Assembly: GCA_040219255.1 (NCBI GenBank)
Contig: JAVJSW010000077.1
Span: forward strand, 96,001 to 160,000
Direction of reading: 5' to 3'
DNA: 64,000 bases
DNA from: Sumerlaeia bacterium
GTDB lineage: Bacteria; Sumerlaeota; Sumerlaeia; SLMS01; JAHLLQ01
Shown here: in pieces, positions 2,010 through 10,589 of the stretch
How the letters are laid out: each line of letters begins with the position of its first letter
Position numbering within the stretch: the first letter of the stretch is position 1
Program-made: the position numbers and the translations under genes
Notes under the pieces: generated by a model
Told to the model about the DNA's origin: nothing
Database searches by the model: none
Seen by the model: only the letters and a program-made list of their open reading frames with translations

Positions 2010-2633
2010 GTGCCCCTGAAAGTCGCCGACCATCCGCTCATCACCCACAAACTGACCATCATCCGCGACAAAGACACGAGCGTCAAAAAGTTCCGCGAGA
2101 TCGTGGAAGAAATCACGCTCCTGCTCACCTACGAAGCTACCCGCGATCTGCCCCTCAGCGACGCGCTGATCGAAACGCCCCTGTGCCCGATGACGGGCCG
2201 GGTCGTCAAAGAACGCTTTGTCATCACGCCCATTCTGCGCGCCGGGCTCGGCATGCTGCACGGCATGATGAGCATCTTTCCCGTGGCCAAAGTCTCCCAC
2301 ATCGGCCTGGAGCGCGACGAAGAAACCGCCCTCCCCCGAACCTATTACTACAAGTCGCCGCCCGATCTGGCCGGCTCGCACGTCATCATCATCGACCCGA
2401 TGCTGGCCACCGGAGGCAGCCTCTCCGCCGCCGTGGACCTTATCAAGAGGGGTCAACCGTCCACCATCAAGTGCATCTGCCTGCTCGCCGCCCCGGAAGG
2501 CCGCGACCGCATGAATCGCGATCACCCGGACGTGGACGTGTACGTGGGGGCACTCGACGAGCGGCTGAACGAAAAAGCCTACATCGTCCCCGGCCTCGGC
2601 GACGCTGGCGACCGAATGTACGGGACGCTGTGA
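2010..2633 (+). CDS. upp: uracil phosphoribosyltransferase
   Basis: HPLITHKLTIIRD, PILRAGLGM, IIDPMLATGGS and YIVPGLGDAGDR motifs. Start moved to GTG 2010. Confidence 0.96.
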   Translation: MPLKVADHPLITHKLTIIRDKDTSVKKFREIVEEITLLLTYEATRDLPLSDALIETPLCPMTGRVVKERFVITPILRAGLGMLHGMMSIFPVAKVSHIGLERDEETALPRTYYYKSPPDLAGSHVIIIDPMLATGGSLSAAVDLIKRGQPSTIKCICLLAAPEGRDRMNRDHPDVDVYVGALDERLNEKAYIVPGLGDAGDRMYGTL

Positions 2634-5600
2634 TTCCGCGCTGAATCCAATTCGCCCAATAACGCATCCTCCAATGTCGCTTCCACCGTGATCGCCCTCG
2701 GATGAGGCGCTTCCGCGGCGATGACGCGCCAGCCCTCGCTGCCCGCCCTCGCGTAGCGGTAAAGCAGCCGCACGTCCGGACCGACGAGTTCCCGGGCGAG
2801 AGCGTCGGGGCCTTGGCCGTTGGCGGGGACTTCCCACACCTTCCGGCCCCAGAACGCGCGGAAGTCGGCGGTCGGCCCGGACCAGAGGAGGCGGCCGCCG
2901 CTGAGCACGCCGATGGCGTCGCAACGGTCTTCCAGGTCCTCGACGATGTGGGTCGAGAAAATGACCGTGCGGGTTCGCGCCAGACGGGCGAGCAACAGGC
3001 GCACTTTGACGCGTTCGAGCGGATCGAGGCCCGCCGTCGGTTCGTCCACGATGAGGATCGGCGGCGCGGAAAGCAGCACCCGGGCGATGCCCGCGCGCTG
3101 GCGCATGCCGCCGGAGAACTGGCCGATCCGCTTGTCCAGCACATGCTCCAGGTGGACTTCTTCGGCGGCGCGGGCGATGGCGGCGGCACGGCCCGGGACG
3201 GTTTGGAGGTTGTCGAGGGCGTGGAGGCGCTGGAGCAGCACCGGGTGCGCGTAAGGATCGGCGGCGGCGCGGCGGGCGGTGCGGGCGGAAATGGTGGCGA
3301 AATATTCCAGATACTCGCGCAGCGTCATCCAGTCGTAATGCCCATGGGTTTGCGGCAGGTAGCCGATGAGCGGCGCCAGGGCCTCTCCGGCCTCGCGCTG
3401 CGCGAAGTCAAAGACACGGACAGTTCCCCGGGCCGGTTCCTGAAGCCCCGCGATGCAGCGCATCAGCGTGGTCTTGCCCGCGCCGTTCGGGCCCAGAAGC
3501 CCGAAGAGACCGGGCCGGATTTCGAGGCTGACCTGGCTGAGGGCGGCGGTGCCCTCCAGCGGCCGATGGCCCAGCGGATAGCCTCCGGTGGGCAGTAGGC
3601 GCTTGAGGTGCGCCAGCGCGCCCGGAGCGAAGGTGACGTGCAGATTCTGAACGACGATGGCGGGCGAGGCGGGGTCCTGCGGGACTGGGGCCGGGGAGGC
3701 TGAGAGCGCCGCCGCGGGCTTGGGCCGCCGCACCGCGAACAGCACATCACCGACCACGGCCCTCCCCACTCGCCATCCGAACCGCGAGCGCCAAAGGCCG
3801 AGCACCAAACCCTTGGGCAGGCCCCAGACGATGCCCTTGACGACTCCCCACCACGTCCGGCCCCGCGTCAGCGTCCGGCCGTAGGGCGCCGCCCACTCCA
3901 CAAAGTCGTCGCCAATCAGGTAAAAGCACGGCAGCGCGATCAGCGTCAGGAACGTCGCCGAAGTCAACCCGCCAACGACCGTCACCGCGACGGGGCGCCA
4001 GATCGAGTCCTCGTCGCCGGTCAGCGCCATCGGCATCAGGCCGAGGAATGTCGTCAGGAACGTCATCAAAATAGGGCGCAGGCGTTGGTCGCTGGCCTGG
4101 AACACGGCCCTGATGCGGCCCCAGCCTTTATCGCGCCGATACCGCAACGCGGTATCCAACAGTACGATGCCATTGTTCACGATGACGCCAATGAGCAGCA
4201 GGACACCGAAAGCCGCCATTTCGTTGAAGGGAAGCTTGGTGATCGCCAGCGCCGCCACGATTCCCAGCATCGCCAGCGGCGTTGTCGCGACGATCACCAG
4301 CGGTACCCACCAGGACTCGAAGGTCGCCGCCATGACCACGAAAATCAGCAGGATGGAAACCTGGAGGCAGAACATGAAGTCTTTCTGCTGCTGATCGAGG
4401 GTTTGCTGGGCGCCGCCGATTTCCGTGACGACGCCGCCGGGATTGGGCAGCGCGGCGAGGAGCTTCTTCACCTGCTCCAGAATCGCCCCCTGATCCGCGC
4501 CGGGGACCCAGAAGTATTCGATGCTCAGGCTGCTTTGCCGGTCCTTGCGATAGATGCGGCCGGGCATTTGGGCGGTGCGGAACGTGGCCAGTTCGCCAAA
4601 GGAAACGGTCGAGCCATTGGGGGCGTAGATCGCCAGGTCGCGGACTTCGTCGGCGTTCTTGCCCTGGGCGTCGGCGAGGCTGATGGTCACGTCGGTGCGG
4701 TCCTCGCCATCACGCAGCGTCAGCGAGGAAATCGTTCCGGACGCGCGGGTGGCGTTGACGTAGTAGGACAAAATCTGCGGCGTCAGGTTGAACAGCCGGG
4801 CTTTCTCGCGGTCGATCAGAGCGTGGTATTCGTTGTCCGTGTCGAAGCGTTCGACTTGGGCCCGGGTAATGGCCGGGATGGTGGTCAGGGCGTCGATCAG
4901 GCGCTGGGCGTAAACTTCGATCACGTCGAAGTCCAAGCCCTTCAGCACCAGAACGCCCTTCTCTCCCCCGCCGAGAACGTCCGGCGCCTGGGGGCGGTCA
5001 GGCGATTCCAGGGCCGCCTCGCCGCCGGGCACGGGGCCAATGAAATCGACGATGTTGGCGCGGATTTCTTCCAGACCCTTTTCGCTCGGGCGCTCGTCGC
5101 GCTCCTTGAGTTCCACATCGAATCGCGCCGAATCGCCGCGGAACCACACGCTGATGTTCTCGATATCCTCGTGCTCGAGGAGCTTGTCCTCGACAAACGC
5201 CACGACGCCGCTGGCCTCCGCCGTCAGGGTCCCAGGCGGCAGAATCAGGAACACGTTGAAGACATCGCGGCCCGCGTTGCGATTGCTGGTCTCTTCGCGG
5301 ATGATGCCGCTCGATTCCATGAAAACGAAAATCGTGAAGAGCACGATGCCAACGCTGACGGCACCGCGATGGCGCAGGCAGCCCTTGAGCACGAACCGGT
5401 AGGTCTCGCGCATGTAGTCGCGTTTGGGGGCGATCTTCAGCGTCGATTGGCGCCGGCCCTTGCGTTCGTAGCTCTTCAGCGCTTTGCCCGTCAGCATCGC
5501 CGACAGCGTCAGCGCCACGCCCAGCGACACGATCAGCGGGAAGATGAAAGCGAAAGCGGGCTCGCGCACGATGGCTTTGAAATCGCCCTCGATAAAGCTG

Positions 5601-6943
5601 AAGGGCACGAAAAAGACGATGGTGGTCAGCGTCGAAGCGAAGAGCGCCCGGCCGATTTCCGTGCCGCCCTCGGCCGCCGCGTCCTCGGCGGACATCCCCC
5701 GGCTGAAGTAAAGCCGGTAGCAGTTCTCGACCACCACGATGGAGTTGTCCACCAGCATCCCCACCGCCAGCGCCAGCCCCACGATGGAGAAGATGTTGAT
5801 GCTCATGTCGGCGGCGTAGAACAGGTTGAACACCGCGATGATCGAGATGGGAACGCTGACGAAAATAATCGCCGCGATTCGCGCCGAGTGGAAGAACAGC
5901 AGCGGCACCAGCAGCGACAGCAACGCTCCGATCAGCGCCAGGTCGCGCACTTCGTTGATGCCCTTGAGAACCTGCTCGGCGGCGTCGAAGTTGACCTTGA
6001 TCTGGACGCCGGTGGGCAGGGACTCGTTGATTTCATCGAGCCGTTCGCGGACTTTGCGCGACATCGCGACCAGGTTCTCGCCCTCTTCCTGGTCCACGCG
6101 GATGCCGATGGCGTAGTTGCCGTTGCGCCGGTAAACCCACGAATCGAGCGACTCCCCCTCAGCGATGCGGGCAACGTCGTCCAGGCGGATGGCGCCTTCC
6201 TTACCGACGGACAAATCCGCCAGTTCGTCCATGGTCTTCACCGCCGGCTCGAGGCGCACGTAGTGCCGTTCCTCGGGCACCTCCAGCGACCCGAGATAGG
6301 TATCTTCCGTCGCCGCCGACTGAATTCTGCTGAAGACCTGCTCGAATTCCAGGCCATAGCCACCCAGCAACGCCGGCACGATTTCCACGTCGGCGGCGGG
6401 ATTGGTGAGTCCGCCGACTTCGACCTTGGCGACGCCACTGATGGCTTTCAGGGCCGGCTCCACCTTGTCTCGGGTCACGTCCTGGATCAGCTCGTCGCTC
6501 GGGCCTTCGACGGCGACCTCCATCAGAAGGTTGACAATTTCGTTGGTGCTGAAGGGAAAAATCTCGATGACGGTGCGGCGGTCTTCCAGTTCCTGCTGGA
6601 ACGAAATCAGCCGCTCCTGCAGGTCCAGCGTCGTCATCCGCAGGTCGGCGTCCTGCTCCAGCTCGACCCGGATCCAGGTGCCCCAGCCGCCGGTCCACGA
6701 CTGCATCGATTTGACCCGCGGGACTTCGGAGATGATGCCCTCCACGGGGCGCGTCAGGGCCTGCAGGACCTCGTTGGCGCTGGCATCCGGCTTGTTCATG
6801 TAGACGCCCAGGGCCGGGACGCTGATGTTGGGGACGAGTTGGAGGGGGAGTTGGCGGTAGGACACGACGCCAAGCACCACGATGGCCAGGAAGACCATGA
6901 GGGTCGTTACCGGACGGCGGACGGATGTGGCGGAGAAAGTCAA
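2579..6943 (-). CDS. AcrB/AcrD/AcrF-family RND permease fused to a C-terminal ABC ATP-binding domain
   Basis: RND: RRPVTTLMVF start, GMLVDNSIVVVEN, FASTLTTIVFFVP, GVIVNNGIVLLD, RLRPILMT. ABC: GPNGAGKT, YLPQ, FSGGMRQR, ILIVDEP, STH. One open frame. Start moved to TTG 6943. Confidence 0.92.
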   Translation of the reverse strand: MTFSATSVRRPVTTLMVFLAIVVLGVVSYRQLPLQLVPNISVPALGVYMNKPDASANEVLQALTRPVEGIISEVPRVKSMQSWTGGWGTWIRVELEQDADLRMTTLDLQERLISFQQELEDRRTVIEIFPFSTNEIVNLLMEVAVEGPSDELIQDVTRDKVEPALKAISGVAKVEVGGLTNPAADVEIVPALLGGYGLEFEQVFSRIQSAATEDTYLGSLEVPEERHYVRLEPAVKTMDELADLSVGKEGAIRLDDVARIAEGESLDSWVYRRNGNYAIGIRVDQEEGENLVAMSRKVRERLDEINESLPTGVQIKVNFDAAEQVLKGINEVRDLALIGALLSLLVPLLFFHSARIAAIIFVSVPISIIAVFNLFYAADMSINIFSIVGLALAVGMLVDNSIVVVENCYRLYFSRGMSAEDAAAEGGTEIGRALFASTLTTIVFFVPFSFIEGDFKAIVREPAFAFIFPLIVSLGVALTLSAMLTGKALKSYERKGRRQSTLKIAPKRDYMRETYRFVLKGCLRHRGAVSVGIVLFTIFVFMESSGIIREETSNRNAGRDVFNVFLILPPGTLTAEASGVVAFVEDKLLEHEDIENISVWFRGDSARFDVELKERDERPSEKGLEEIRANIVDFIGPVPGGEAALESPDRPQAPDVLGGGEKGVLVLKGLDFDVIEVYAQRLIDALTTIPAITRAQVERFDTDNEYHALIDREKARLFNLTPQILSYYVNATRASGTISSLTLRDGEDRTDVTISLADAQGKNADEVRDLAIYAPNGSTVSFGELATFRTAQMPGRIYRKDRQSSLSIEYFWVPGADQGAILEQVKKLLAALPNPGGVVTEIGGAQQTLDQQQKDFMFCLQVSILLIFVVMAATFESWWVPLVIVATTPLAMLGIVAALAITKLPFNEMAAFGVLLLIGVIVNNGIVLLDTALRYRRDKGWGRIRAVFQASDQRLRPILMTFLTTFLGLMPMALTGDEDSIWRPVAVTVVGGLTSATFLTLIALPCFYLIGDDFVEWAAPYGRTLTRGRTWWGVVKGIVWGLPKGLVLGLWRSRFGWRVGRAVVGDVLFAVRRPKPAAALSASPAPVPQDPASPAIVVQNLHVTFAPGALAHLKRLLPTGGYPLGHRPLEGTAALSQVSLEIRPGLFGLLGPNGAGKTTLMRCIAGLQEPARGTVRVFDFAQREAGEALAPLIGYLPQTHGHYDWMTLREYLEYFATISARTARRAAADPYAHPVLLQRLHALDNLQTVPGRAAAIARAAEEVHLEHVLDKRIGQFSGGMRQRAGIARVLLSAPPILIVDEPTAGLDPLERVKVRLLLARLARTRTVIFSTHIVEDLEDRCDAIGVLSGGRLLWSGPTADFRAFWGRKVWEVPANGQGPDALARELVGPDVRLLYRYARAGSEGWRVIAAEAPHPRAITVEATLEDALLGELDSARNHSVPYIRSPASPRPGTM

Positions 6944-7070
6944 GGCGGAGAAGCTCTCGAGGACGGCGCGGAAGGCATCGGCTCGGCGGGCGAGCCGGCG
7001 CCGCCAAAGGATGGTGAAGGTAAAGAAGCGAAAGAAAGATTCGTCAAGGCCATTCGCCCGATTTCCGCCC

Positions 7071-7097
7071 TTGACAAGGCGGCGCCCTTTGCACAAT
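7071..7097 (+). promoter_or_regulatory. candidate sigma70-type promoter for rplM-rpsI
   Basis: Perfect TTGACA at 7071 followed by CACAAT at 7092. The 15-bp spacing is suboptimal. Confidence 0.3.
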
Positions 7098-7319
7098 CTC
7101 CCGTCCCTCTTGCGGGACGCCGGCTCGCCGCGTGCGGTAGAGTATGGCCCACGGCACCTTCTCCGATCCGACCCGTTACACCTGATCGAGATTGGCCGCC
7201 CACTGAGCAGACGAGCCGACGGCAAGAGACTGGCGCTGACACCGAATTTTCCGGGCCTTGGTGAGGGACCGGGGACTTCCAGCCCAATACCAATTCAACC
7301 AGTACACGGATAGACGAGC

Positions 7320-7787
7320 ATGAAAGCCCAATCGTCAACGCTGCCGCGCATCGCGGATATGAAAGAAAAGTGGTACCTGGTGGACGCCGAAGGCGAGGTG
7401 GTCGGACGCGTGGCGTCCCGGGTCGCCAAGCTGCTCCGCGGCAAGCTCGAGCCCACCTACACTCCGCACATCAACCCCCAGGTCCACGTCGTCGTCATCA
7501 ACGCCGACAAGGCAGTCTTCACCGGCCGCAAGACCCAGGACAAGGTGTACTACCATCACTCCGGTTACCGCACCGGCATCAAAGCCATCACCGCCGAAAA
7601 GCTGTTCATCAAGTGCCCGGAAGATGTGATCCGCAATGCCGTTCACGGCATGTTGCCGAAGAATGCCCTTGGCCGGGTTTTGAATAAGAACATGAGGGTC
7701 TACGCCGGTGCCGAGCATCCGCACGACGCTCAACAGCCCCAAGCCCTCAAATTCGCCACCCGCAAGCCCAAACGCAGCGACGACTAA
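7320..7787 (+). CDS. rplM: 50S ribosomal protein L13
   Basis: KWYLVDAEG, GRVASRVAKLLRGK, YYHHSGY, GMLPKN, HPHDAQQP. Confidence 0.98.
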   Translation: MKAQSSTLPRIADMKEKWYLVDAEGEVVGRVASRVAKLLRGKLEPTYTPHINPQVHVVVINADKAVFTGRKTQDKVYYHHSGYRTGIKAITAEKLFIKCPEDVIRNAVHGMLPKNALGRVLNKNMRVYAGAEHPHDAQQPQALKFATRKPKRSDD

Positions 7788-7826
7788 TCATCGGCCCCGC
7801 TCACAGAGAGGAACGACTCAGCACTC

Positions 7827-8225
7827 ATGGCTCAATTGGAACAGTATCTCGGAACGGGACGCCGCAAGGAAGCGGTGGCTCGCGTTTACCTTCGCCCCGG
7901 CAAGGGCAAAATCGTCATCAATGGCGACGACTTCAAGAAGTACATCGGTAACCGCCCCCGTCTGGAAGCCGCCATTCGCGGCCCCTTGAAAGACGGCCAG
8001 GCCCTCACCAAGTACGACGTGATCGTCAACGTCAACGGCGGCGGCATCGCCGGCCAGGCAGGCGCCATACGCATGGGCATCGCCCGTGCCCTGGTCGCCG
8101 CCACCCCGACCCTGCGCCCCGCTATCAAGGAGAAGGGTCACCTGACCCGCGACCCGCGTACCGTGGAGCGCAAGAAGTACGGCCTCCACAAGGCGCGCAA
8201 GGCTTCCCAGTTCTCCAAGCGCTAA
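7827..8225 (+). CDS. rpsI: 30S ribosomal protein S9
   Basis: GTGRRKEAVARV, GGGIAGQAGAIR, LTRDPR, ERKKYGLHKARKASQFSKR. Confidence 0.98.
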   Translation: MAQLEQYLGTGRRKEAVARVYLRPGKGKIVINGDDFKKYIGNRPRLEAAIRGPLKDGQALTKYDVIVNVNGGGIAGQAGAIRMGIARALVAATPTLRPAIKEKGHLTRDPRTVERKKYGLHKARKASQFSKR

Positions 8226-8275
8226 TCCGCCCGCCGGCCAGCGGCCCCAACCCGGAACCCTGGCCCCTCGGTTAT

Positions 8276-8323
8276 GACGTCCCTCCCGCGCCGCTTCGGC
8301 CCTGCGGGAGGGCGTTTTCGTTT
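8276..8323 (+). terminator. intrinsic terminator after rpsI
   Basis: GC stem acgtccctcccgc / gcgggagggcgt followed by tttcgttt. Confidence 0.7.
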
Positions 8324-8359
8324 GCCGCCCAACCCCTTTCCCGCTCTATCCATCGCGCC

Positions 8360-9727
8360 ATGATTCGGAACCTGACCCTCCGCGACTTCTACCGCCCCGT
8401 CGATGTGGCCTCGCTGGCCTTCTGGCGCATCGCCTTCGGCCTGCTGATGGCCTGGGACATGGTCAAGGTCCTCCAGTTCGAGGAAATCCGCATCTATTAC
8501 GCGGAAGCCGAGTACCACTTCAGTTACAACTTCTTCACCTGGGTGCGCCCCTTGCCCGAACCCTGGACCACGATCCTCCATATCGTCGTGGGGATTTTTG
8601 GAATCCTGGTGGCTCTCGGTCTTTTCTACCGCTTCGCCGCCGCAGGACTGTGTCTTACGTACACTTATACTTTCCTGATGGAGAAGTGCAACTACAACAA
8701 TCACTACTATCTGATGTGCCTGCTGGCGGGGTTGATGATTCTGATTCCCGCGCACCGCGCCTGGAGCCTGGACCGCATCCTCTTCAAAGACAAGCGGCCA
8801 GAGACCGCGCCGGTCTGGGGCGTGTGGCTGCTGCGTTTTCAACTTGGGCTCGTGTACTTCTACGCCGCCATCGCCAAGATCAACTACGACTGGATGGTGC
8901 GGGCCGAGCCGATCAGCCGATGGCTTTCCTCACGCTCCGACCGTCCTTTCATCGGGCCTGTCATGGCATGGGAACCGATCGGACCGTTATTCGCCTACAG
9001 TGGTTTCCTCTTCGACCTGCTGATCGCGCCGGCCCTGCTGTGGAAGCCAACCCGCAAGTACGCCTTCATCGCCGCCGCCCTCTTTCACGGAACCAACAGT
9101 ATCGTCTTCGACATCGGCATTTTCCCCGCGCTGGCGCTGGCGGCGACGTCGATCTTTTTCGAGCCCGATTGGCCAAGGCGGGTCTGGGGAACTTTAACCC
9201 GCCAATTCATCCCCCGCGTTCCCGAGGAGCGGCCGCCGGACCGCCTTCTGGGCCGTCAGAAAGCCCTCCTGGCCTTCCTCGCGTTCTATTGTCTGCTGCA
9301 AGCCCTCATTCCCTTCCGCCACCACCTCTACCCGGGCGATGTGGCCTGGACCGAAGAGGGGCATCAATGGTCCTGGCGCATGAAGCTTCGCAGCAAAGAC
9401 GCCCTCGTGCGTTATTTCGTCACGGATCCGGCCACCGGCTTGACCTGGGTGGCCGATGTGCAGGACCATTTCACTGCCCAGCAAATCCGCAATCACTCCA
9501 AAGACCCGGACATGCTGATTCAAATGGGACACTTCATCGCTGATATCTACCGGCGCCGGGAAGGCATCGAAAACCTCGAAGTCCGCGCCGAGGCCAACCT
9601 CCGCCTGAACTATGGCACAACCGGCCTTCTCGTGGATCCGGACGTCGATCTGGCGGCCCAGCGCCTCGGCCTCCTGCCCAAGCCTTGGATCCTGGAACGG
9701 CCGCCCCGGGAACCTCCAAACCGGTAG
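8360..9727 (+). CDS. HTTM-domain membrane protein, vitamin K-dependent gamma-carboxylase-like
   Basis: SLAFWRIAFG, NYNNHYYL, YFYAAIAKINYDW, FDIGIFP and WTEEGHQWSWRMKLRSK motifs. Confidence 0.9.
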   Translation: MIRNLTLRDFYRPVDVASLAFWRIAFGLLMAWDMVKVLQFEEIRIYYAEAEYHFSYNFFTWVRPLPEPWTTILHIVVGIFGILVALGLFYRFAAAGLCLTYTYTFLMEKCNYNNHYYLMCLLAGLMILIPAHRAWSLDRILFKDKRPETAPVWGVWLLRFQLGLVYFYAAIAKINYDWMVRAEPISRWLSSRSDRPFIGPVMAWEPIGPLFAYSGFLFDLLIAPALLWKPTRKYAFIAAALFHGTNSIVFDIGIFPALALAATSIFFEPDWPRRVWGTLTRQFIPRVPEERPPDRLLGRQKALLAFLAFYCLLQALIPFRHHLYPGDVAWTEEGHQWSWRMKLRSKDALVRYFVTDPATGLTWVADVQDHFTAQQIRNHSKDPDMLIQMGHFIADIYRRREGIENLEVRAEANLRLNYGTTGLLVDPDVDLAAQRLGLLPKPWILERPPREPPNR

Positions 9728-9824
9728 TCTTGTCCTCTCTGACCATCTTTCTCCTCTCCGCCCGGATGACCTTTGCACGACTTTGGCATCCGGGTTCGCC
9801 ATGCCTCCTCACTAAAGGTCCTCT

Positions 9825-10589
9825 ATGCTTCGTTCCCTCTCCGCCCTCCTGATCGCCGCCGCGCTGACGCTGCCGCTGACGGCGCAAACCACGCCTTCTC
9901 GCATCGGCTTCGTGGATATCGAAATCGTCCTGGAGCAAAGCCAGGCGCTGCGCCTCGCGCTGGACGAAATGGATCGCGAGCTGGCCCTTCGCGCCCGCGA
10001 AATCGACCGCCAGGAGCGGGAATTCCGCCGCCAGCGCTTCGACCTCGACCGCCAGGAGCGCCTGCTCTCGGAGGACGAACGCGAGCGCCGCCGTGACGAA
10101 TTGCTCGCGATGGAGCGGGAAATCGAGCGCGAGCAGTTTGAGTTCGAGTCGGACCTGCGATCCCGCGAGCGGCAGATCGAACCCGTCCTGGAATACATCA
10201 TGGACGTGGTCGCCGACGTGGCGGAGCGGGAGGGCTATGACATGGTCCTGCGCGGCGAGGTGGTGATCTATGGCAACCGCACAGCCGACCTGACGCCCCA
10301 GGTCATCACCGCTCTCGACGCCCAGCCGGACAAGCTCTCCGAGGTGATGGGCCTGGCGGGGCTTCCCGCGTCCCAGAGCCCGGCCGGAGCCACCGCCCCG
10401 TCGACCGCCGCGTCGACTCCTGCGCCCCCGCTCCTGCCCCAGGACCGGGCCGCCTCCTCGGCGTCCACCTCGGAGTCCGAGGCGACCTCCCGCCGGCGCC
10501 CCGGCAGCCCGCCGGTCACTCCCGCGGAACGCCCCGCTATCCCCGGCTTCGGCGAACGGACCGCTTCGACCTCCACAACCAATCCCTAG
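9825..10589 (+). CDS. skp: OmpH/Skp-family periplasmic chaperone with Pro/Ala/Ser-rich tail
   Basis: Signal peptide, RIGFVD, charged coiled coil, VAEREGYDMVL...DLTPQVI; lies upstream of lpxC. Confidence 0.85.
   Translation: MLRSLSALLIAAALTLPLTAQTTPSRIGFVDIEIVLEQSQALRLALDEMDRELALRAREIDRQEREFRRQRFDLDRQERLLSEDERERRRDELLAMEREIEREQFEFESDLRSRERQIEPVLEYIMDVVADVAEREGYDMVLRGEVVIYGNRTADLTPQVITALDAQPDKLSEVMGLAGLPASQSPAGATAPSTAASTPAPPLLPQDRAASSASTSESEATSRRRPGSPPVTPAERPAIPGFGERTASTSTTNP

Follow-up and report, generated by a model that had tools for sequence, protein, structure and literature searches.

An RND permease fused to an ABC ATPase in Sumerlaeota, and candidate partners of a proposed dispersed export machine

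Resistance-nodulation-division (RND) pumps, which are proton-driven trimers, and ATP-binding cassette (ABC) transporters, which are ATP-driven dimers, are taught as alternative engines of bacterial efflux. Here we analyze a gene that combines the two in one reading frame. It lies in a 64,000-nucleotide stretch (the window) of contig JAVJSW010000077.1 from a Sumerlaeia bacterium (assembly GCA_040219255.1). The longest minus-strand frame in the window's open reading frame (ORF) list spans 2579..7225, and judging from the sequence the TTG at 6943 is the likely start of a 1454-amino-acid (aa) product. This product matches database protein P0003 letter for letter, and its N-terminus lines up with those of 65 relatives in an alignment. 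In the long translation (P0001), Pfam finds ACR_tran (PF00873, the AcrB/AcrD/AcrF model) at near-full length over residues 98-1104 (E = 4.8e-182, model positions 2-1019 of 1021) and ABC_tran (PF00005) at residues 1229-1398 (E = 5.6e-26). In window numbering the RND part ends near nucleotide (nt) 3914, and the first ATPase strand starts near nt 3658. An earlier note, made from the letters of the window, had described a full AcrB-like permease, a Trp/Arg and then Pro/Ala linker and an intact ABC domain in one frame, with edges near nt 3900 and nt 3660; the ORF, its translation and Pfam bear this layout out. The features are given below, with conservation counted over an alignment of 107 full-length fused relatives and transmembrane helices abbreviated TM.

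2579..6943, minus strand: whole RND::ABC fusion gene, 1454 aa plus stop, TTG start at 6943 (ORF list, translation, identical database protein P0003)
3914..6934, minus strand: RND permease domain, residues ~4-1010 of 1454 (Pfam ACR_tran, best PDB match MdtB, 11 hydropathy peaks)
5744..5749, minus strand: TM4 Asp399-Asn400, at the AcrB D407/D408 positions (VDN; alignment to MdtB)
4172..4177, minus strand: TM10 Asn923-Asn924, with Asn923 at the AcrB K940 position (VNN; alignment to MdtB)
4061..4084, minus strand: TM11 RLRPILMT, with the AcrB R971 and T978 positions (R954 and T961, invariant in 107/107)
3659..3913, minus strand: linker, residues 1011-1095, a Trp/Arg-rich amphipathic and then a Pro/Ala-rich stretch (translation)
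2582..3658, minus strand: ABC ATPase and C-terminal extension, residues 1096-1454 (Pfam ABC_tran PF00005)
3548..3628, minus strand: insert of ~27 residues between the A-loop strand and the next ATPase strand, residues 1106-1132 (P1118, G1125 and R1127 largely conserved)
3467..3493, minus strand: Walker A GPNGAGKTT, residues 1151-1159 (Lys1157 invariant in 107/107)
3104..3118, minus strand: ABC signature FSGGM, residues 1276-1280 (SGGM invariant in 107/107)
3023..3058, minus strand: Walker B (IVDEP), catalytic Glu and D-loop, residues 1296-1307 (D1300, E1301, L1306 and D1307 invariant in 107/107)
2948..2950, minus strand: H-loop His1332 (invariant in 107/107)

A 1059-aa ORF on the opposite strand (4085-7264, plus) was set aside as a shadow frame of the GC-rich gene.

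The RND::ABC fusion gene is real, intact and conserved. A database search seeded with the junction and the ATPase part returned 2438 matches at E <= 0.001, and PF00873 and PF00005 are both present in all 120 matches listed, among whose source names are Sumerlaeota, Bacteroidota (Marivirga harenae), Acidobacteriota, KSB1 and Chitinivibrionales. Within the phylum, 24 of 75 genomes carry a full-length relative in an intact single frame (E <= 1e-150). The earlier note had proposed to look for this two-domain architecture across genomes. The window's genome has a single copy, to which none of its other RNDs is more than 27% identical. Both parts show equal conservation, with identities in the three closest genomes of 57-60% (RND) and 58-61% (ATPase). 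In a FastTree phylogeny of RND parts (70 rows: every second of the 107 relatives, three fused proteins from our loci and 13 unfused RNDs), all 57 fused proteins fall into one clade with a support of 100, within which a short type (42 rows, the window's protein among them) and a long type (15 rows) separate. Scanning a genome collection with the linker and ATPase part gave 80 loci, where an RND stands in frame only at L009, from a Sumerlaeia metagenome-assembled genome, and the others are generic ABC ATPases. A metagenome scan with the single short-type protein P0058 found only one generic ATPase locus and added no further independent neighborhoods.

We find it hardly credible that errors of assembly or annotation produced the fusion, or that the gene is in decay. 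The sequencing reads leave some room for this idea. The one public DNA run contains 0.36 of the sampled words (no RNA run is listed), and its low-depth contigs cover 25 of 30 bins of 2400-7300. No indel is listed in these contigs, but over the linker at 3600-3950, where the earlier note had wanted the junction confirmed, they span 3381-3581 and 3782-3977 and do not bridge it whole. A "skip 275" joint in the same contigs was disregarded, one of its sides being 21 letters long. Two relatives also look split. A natural split form in G015 was rejected, since each of its two frames runs off a contig end. In the Fibrobacterota genome G081 (locus L146, G081:C37, 5523-10378), the gene occupies two frames (8807-10378 and 5523-8915), but the change falls inside the RND part, not at the junction, and a frameshift, an error in sequencing or pseudogene formation may lie behind it. 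It is the conservation of the fusion, and not the reads, that speaks against an artefact: both domains recur in every match listed, the single frame is intact across the phylum, and the motifs are invariant.

The ATPase part has a complete set of ABC_tran motifs: Walker A, Q-loop, signature, Walker B with its Glu, D-loop and H-loop. Because the Walker A Lys, Q-loop Gln, SGG, Walker B Asp-Glu, D-loop and H-loop His are each invariant in 107/107 relatives, the sequences indicate that this domain is under catalytic constraint. Its nearest NCBIfam models are GldA, DrrA and NodI, which are ATPases working with ABC-2 permeases. All score below their curated cut-offs (GldA 137.8 bits against 402.6; DrrA 120.2 against 312.45), and the domain belongs to no named equivalog. 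The linker that precedes it varies in length, with Trp at 1031, 1040 and 1051 recurring in most relatives, and has no clear additional TM helix, as no 19-residue window among those sampled exceeds 1.0 on the Kyte-Doolittle scale. At the site of the ~27-residue insert, long-type relatives have an insert of ~170-190 residues with about four hydrophobic helices. The order seen over residues ~1040-1310 of the long-type proteins P0088 and P0107 is two hydrophobic helices after TM12, the first ATPase strand, the big insert and the remaining ATPase.

Among PDB entries, the RND part matches MdtB best (9lyq_B, E = 7.5e-79). By NCBIfam it is nearest RND_permease_2 and MdtB/MdtC, all far below curated cut-offs (the best, RND_permease_2, 495.5 bits against 1250), and it belongs to no named RND subfamily. 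The AcrB proton relay comprises Asp407 and Asp408 in TM4, Lys940 in TM10, and Arg971 and Thr978 in TM11. Aligned to MdtB, the fusion keeps the equivalents of Asp407, Arg971 and Thr978 and has Asn for Asp408 and Asn for Lys940, where MdtB has Asp-Asp and Lys; the VDN and VNN readings made earlier are correct. Across the fused relatives the first TM4 Asp is kept in 107/107 and followed by N, S or T, never D, and the Lys940 position is N in 106/107. All five best PDB matches shown for each segment have Asp-Asp and Lys, so no solved structure of the variant is among them and its mode of coupling is uncharacterized in that set.

An altered relay next to a catalytically constrained ATPase raises the possibility that ATP hydrolysis directly energizes or gates the fused RND, replacing or supplementing the proton relay and requiring no ABC membrane domain. 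The two domains are indeed covalently joined and equally conserved, the ATPase motifs are invariant, the Asp408 and Lys940 equivalents are missing in 107/107, and the variant appears in none of the five best PDB matches shown. We nonetheless regard this explanation as unlikely. Among unfused RNDs of the phylum and of the window's genome, 9/14 have the D-N/S pattern in TM4 and 10/14 the N-N pattern in TM10, as the earlier note had cautioned, and these proteins, which lack the ATPase, must be energized otherwise. By sequence, the VDN/VNN variant is the mark of a large RND subgroup and not of the fusion. We rejected it as evidence for ATP coupling, and the reading in which ATP energizes the RND is weakened because unfused RNDs lacking an ATPase have the same variant. 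Moreover, the Asp407, Arg971 and Thr978 equivalents are still invariant. Short of a rigorous search for one, no counterpart of an ABC coupling helix was recognized on the cytoplasmic side of the RND. One unfused RND of the Asp-Asn type (L113, G023:C137) sits in a 1486-aa frame with ~427 additional N-terminal residues of unknown nature.

The gene neighborhood offers the ATPase no obvious membrane partner. In the window the fusion gene stands alone between convergent upp and divergent rplM, and its 3' end overlaps that of upp (plus strand, 1860-2633) by 55 nt (2579-2633). Pfam identifies the neighbors as rho, coaE, upp, rplM, rpsI, an HTTM/VKGC-like gene, skp, lpxC, a FabA-like/fabZ-like gene and lpxI, with no membrane fusion protein (MFP), outer membrane factor (OMF) or ABC permease among them; the earlier note had likewise seen no ABC permease gene nearby. 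Between rpsI and skp, positions 8360-9727 (plus) encode a bacterial HTTM protein with a vitamin-K-dependent gamma-carboxylase lumenal-type domain (PF05090, E = 7.9e-84; PF22777, E = 5.5e-37). We extended the comparison to 17 phylum loci (the window and 16 others). The flanks are housekeeping genes, with clpX upstream in 7/17, along with trpC, trpD, plsY, dnaJ, dnaK, HU, thrS, GT4 and S13 peptidase genes. No adjacent MFP (HlyD) or OMF (OEP) gene and no Pfam-recognizable ABC permease was found among the neighbors scanned in these loci. In 15/17, no permease, MFP or OMF gene lies beside the fusion, which favors direct energizing of the RND by ATP. The exception is genus g39 (G047 and G050), in which the same strand encodes an 895-aa membrane protein 39-53 bp upstream of the fusion, in otherwise unrelated surroundings. 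It has weak matches to GldF (E = 0.078), ABC2_membrane_2 (E = 0.78) and Peptidase_M1. In a locus of family f4 (L130, G059:C53), the gene directly upstream of the fusion on the same strand (4917-7403) encodes a protein of 828 aa that has a single hydrophobic segment and matches neither Pfam nor NCBIfam models.

A homologue of the g39 protein is encoded in the window's genome, on another contig than the fusion:

G000:C30:74273-76885: Orf870, 870 aa, candidate ABC membrane partner

The two proteins match over residues 305-846 (E = 1e-27). Orf870 has about six to seven hydrophobic helices within its first 290 residues, followed by an M1-peptidase-like domain of ~580 residues that is probably periplasmic. 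Although there is a weak match to the Peptidase_M1 tail, sequence makes peptidase activity unlikely because the HEXXH motif occurs in none of 16 proteins checked (Orf870, 14 full-length orthologues and the G060 homologue); weaker Orf870 matches inspected in other genomes (L170, L171) do contain it. We modeled residues 1-330 with AlphaFold from 16 sequences, with a predicted local distance difference test (pLDDT) score of 84.4 and a predicted template modeling (TM-score) value, pTM, of 0.84. All PDB matches listed by Foldseek for this model are type-V (ABC-2) ABC membrane domains: NosY, ABCG1/2/5/8/25, PmtCD, ABCA4/7, ABCH and CcmB, with a best E of 3e-3. In the ESM Atlas, whole Orf870 lies beside clusters automatically named "ABC transporter permease/M1 family aminopeptidase" (structural TM-score 0.74 over residues 8-867; language-model features 0.95). 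A PDB profile search with the N-terminus gave no matches at E <= 10, and the Orf870 alignment has no stretch conserved enough for metagenome searching.

Orf870 has an epimerase and a GT4 glycosyltransferase as neighbors. No ATPase gene was found among the ORFs scanned near it, nor by tblastn with the nucleotide-binding domain over the 15-kb locus. The Orf870 orthologue of five f1 genomes has a LolA-like gene (PF03548, E = 9.9e-13) as its immediate downstream neighbor (L183, 8080-8784; also L151, L152, L154 and L157), and a 54%-identical orthologue is present in the window's genome on another contig than Orf870 (G000:C37:157603-158232). This neighbor hints at a lipidic or lipoprotein cargo.

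Orf870 and the fusion also agree in their distribution. We scored each gene in the same 61 phylum genomes (fusion at E <= 1e-190, Orf870 orthologue at E <= 1e-25), and both are present in the same 21 and missing from the other 40. The next-best Orf870 match beyond the 21 (G053, 1.9e-19) is a 657-aa HEXXH protein. Joint absences are nested within positive families (g4 in f1, g9 in f3), and joint presences are found outside the main order (f13, f15). A candidate type-V permease that co-occurs perfectly with the fusion, and adjoins it in relatives, counts against direct energizing of the RND. The earlier note had proposed that ATP energizes the pump, there being no ABC permease nearby; that argument loses its footing with a candidate, Orf870, elsewhere in the genome. 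That the ABC domain serves a separate ABC permease, which the note had named as counting against its own reading, is approached through co-occurrence and adjacency, with Orf870 as the candidate.

A second gene of the window's genome follows the fusion almost as closely:

G000:C69:64949-68254: unfused RND paralogue

On the tree it is the nearest unfused relative of the fusion, grouping with an RND from a Fibrobacterota operon described below (support 98) next to the fused clade (support 89). An orthologue of at least 47% identity is present in 20 of the 21 fusion-bearing genomes, all but G050, where none was found, and is missing from the remaining 40, which have only RND paralogues of 36-41% identity that positive genomes carry as well. 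In this phylum it is a lone gene, unlinked to the fusion, with no shared neighbors, MFP or OMF; in the window's genome its upstream side contains no MFP or OMF gene, and the contig stops shortly after it. The fusion and the paralogue co-occur but are unlinked.

Long-type fusions place similar parts side by side. They occur in 3 of 101 Fibrobacterota genomes sampled, and at all three loci the operon order is OEP, HlyD, an unfused 1029-aa RND, the fusion and an overlapping gene for a 237-254-aa membrane protein. The OEP, HlyD and RND calls come from Pfam on the L144 copies; the other two loci were matched by gene size and order. The small membrane protein has no Pfam match and belongs to a family of 1357 matches with no Pfam domain, under names that include Chitinivibrionales, KSB1 and Bacteroidales. 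Its model (pLDDT 85.6) matches type-V ABC domains, including NosY (TM-score 0.61), ABCG5/8 (TM-score 0.64) and PmtCD. A profile of this protein finds no match in the window's genome at E <= 1. The scattered Sumerlaeota genes look like a dispersed version of the Fibrobacterota operon. Support for the possible MdtBC-like heterotrimer with an unfused RND that the earlier note had suggested comes from the 20/21 co-occurrence, from the paralogue's place on the tree and from a relative of it beside the fusion in 3/3 Fibrobacterota operons.

We think it most likely that the ATPase drives a separately encoded ABC membrane partner rather than the RND pump itself. On the simplest view it acts like its relatives and drives a type-V membrane protein. 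On this basis we propose a dispersed hybrid, in which an ATP-driven ABC-2 module with a separately encoded membrane partner is tethered to an RND pump, a proposal that we judge to have an even chance of being right. The architecture, motif conservation, co-occurrence, adjacency in relatives and predicted folds are shown by the data, and from them we infer the physical pairing, stoichiometry, energy use and substrate handling that follow. The fusion product would be one subunit of the machine. Its RND body, of the subgroup with one TM4 Asp and the TM11 Arg/Thr, would probably be driven by the proton gradient like its unfused relatives. The C-terminal ATPase, an ABC-2/DrrA/GldA-type motor, would most likely pair as a dimer with Orf870 as its type-V membrane protein, a role that the small downstream membrane protein may fill in the long type. 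The ABC-2 module would thereby be covalently tethered to the RND pump, and a substrate moved or presented by it could be handed to the RND for onward export. The unfused paralogue may provide the third protomer; by analogy with MdtB2C, two fused subunits and one plain subunit would carry exactly two ATPase domains, which would fit an ABC dimer.

Several observations weigh against this proposal. The Foldseek E-values are weak (3e-3 and 3.6e-2; none <= 0.001), though the listed matches agree on fold class, and at the sequence level neither the Pfam ABC2 models nor the PDB profile gives significant evidence for an ABC-2 permease. The pairing of Orf870 with the ATPase is a partnership that we infer, not a physical observation. 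A predicted complex of ATPase residues 1085-1454 with Orf870 residues 8-300 scored 0.14 and 0.01 against a mark of 0.32, and we use it neither way. A different ABC ATPase gene, ~0.7 kb away from the Orf870 orthologue in five f3 genomes, could encode its motor there. At the one such locus that was annotated (L179, G033, 6397-9289), genes for an S26 signal peptidase, the ABC ATPase (245 aa) and an ABC-2 permease (525 aa) come after the orthologue, which gives this ATPase a permease of its own; gene sizes and order agree at three further f3 loci (G021, G040 and G044). In the window's genome, no homologue of the G033 permease was found at E <= 1e-5. The co-occurring genomes are kin, and their pattern amounts to about four independent concordant events (g4, g9, f13 and f15), with no discordant one. 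For the short type, adjacency of membrane protein and fusion comes from a single genus (g39), and no MFP or OMF gene is linked to the fusion, Orf870 or the unfused RND in this phylum. Orf870 and the Fibrobacterota small protein lack profile similarity (hhalign probability 0.3%), and the membrane partnerships of the two types may have arisen separately. Finally, a homotrimer of the fusion would carry three ATPase domains, and the 2:1 heterotrimer that avoids this is conjecture.

The dispersal of the three genes, each monocistronic, would also suit a nucleotide-dependent clamp or sensor, in which the ATPase assembles or regulates RND oligomers by holding two protomers together or sensing ATP. 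No transport through an ABC domain would then occur, and Orf870 and the unfused RND would co-occur through a common envelope pathway. The conserved ~27-residue insert and the Trp/Arg-rich interfacial linker could keep such an ATPase at the membrane, and the LolA-like gene after Orf870 in 5 f1 genomes suggests a common lipid or lipoprotein pathway. However, the fully conserved catalytic Glu and H-loop point to hydrolysis rather than mere binding, and a membrane protein of predicted type-V fold is tightly coupled to the fusion in operons of two distant lineages. We consider a clamp or sensor improbable.

The dispersed hybrid may also be put in a more ambitious form, which is possible but rather doubtful: a dual-energy envelope exporter of an undescribed class. 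Two ATPase-bearing RND protomers and one plain protomer would bring two ATPase domains to clamp a type-V dimer, and ATP-driven extraction or flipping at the inner membrane would be coupled, mechanically and spatially, to proton-driven RND export. If this were true, one machine would use both energy sources, and the mismatch between trimer and dimer would be solved by subunit composition.

Comparison with known systems shows where the hybrid would stand. MdtABC-TolC is a tripartite RND pump of Escherichia coli with two RND paralogues and an MdtB2C stoichiometry. Like it, the fusion has an RND part whose best PDB match is MdtB and a second, unfused RND paralogue that co-occurs, and in the Fibrobacterota operon a second RND stands beside the fusion with an MFP and an OMF. 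The differences are an Asp-Asn / Asn relay in place of MdtB's Asp-Asp / Lys, paralogues that are unlinked in Sumerlaeota with no adjacent MFP or OMF gene, and the ATPase itself, as we know of no ATPase domain in MdtB or MdtC. The fusion's ATPase is nearest those of type-V ABC systems (NosDFY, DrrAB, GldAFG, ABCG), and the predicted folds of the Orf870 N-terminus and the Fibrobacterota small protein match NosY, ABCG, PmtCD and CcmB. Orf870 has a large extra-membrane domain, much as NosY carries NosD. In type-V systems, however, the ATPase is a free subunit or shares a chain with its own membrane domain and is not known to be joined to an RND permease, and all family scores of the fusion are far below the curated cut-offs. 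The "ABC transporter permease/M1 family aminopeptidase" proteins, of which no member is known to be characterized, are nearest to Orf870 by language-model features and structure, and Orf870 has a weak match to the Peptidase_M1 tail. Unlike them, Orf870 lacks HEXXH, has no significant match to the Pfam ABC2 models and has no ATPase gene identified next to it. MacAB-TolC, an ATP-driven tripartite efflux pump, also links an ABC motor to envelope-spanning export, and the long-type operon has an MFP and an OMF as well; MacB brings type-VII membrane and periplasmic domains of its own and lacks an RND body, whereas the RND fold is complete in the fusion.

Full-text literature searches found no description of an RND-ABC fusion, and to our knowledge cooperation between ABC and RND transporters has so far been known only between separate pumps. 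What is new here is the short, operon-less form of the fusion, its co-inherited unlinked partners and the predicted fold of an orphan permease. The window adds to the operon-encoded long form a variant whose three parts are scattered as single genes, yet are inherited together. Such co-inheritance provides a way to name likely partners, including an orphan ABC membrane protein that is invisible to Pfam. Should the parts cooperate, they would give the first case of hard-wired hand-over from an ABC step at the cytoplasmic membrane to an RND step, and it would make the stoichiometry of an RND hetero-oligomer directly testable.

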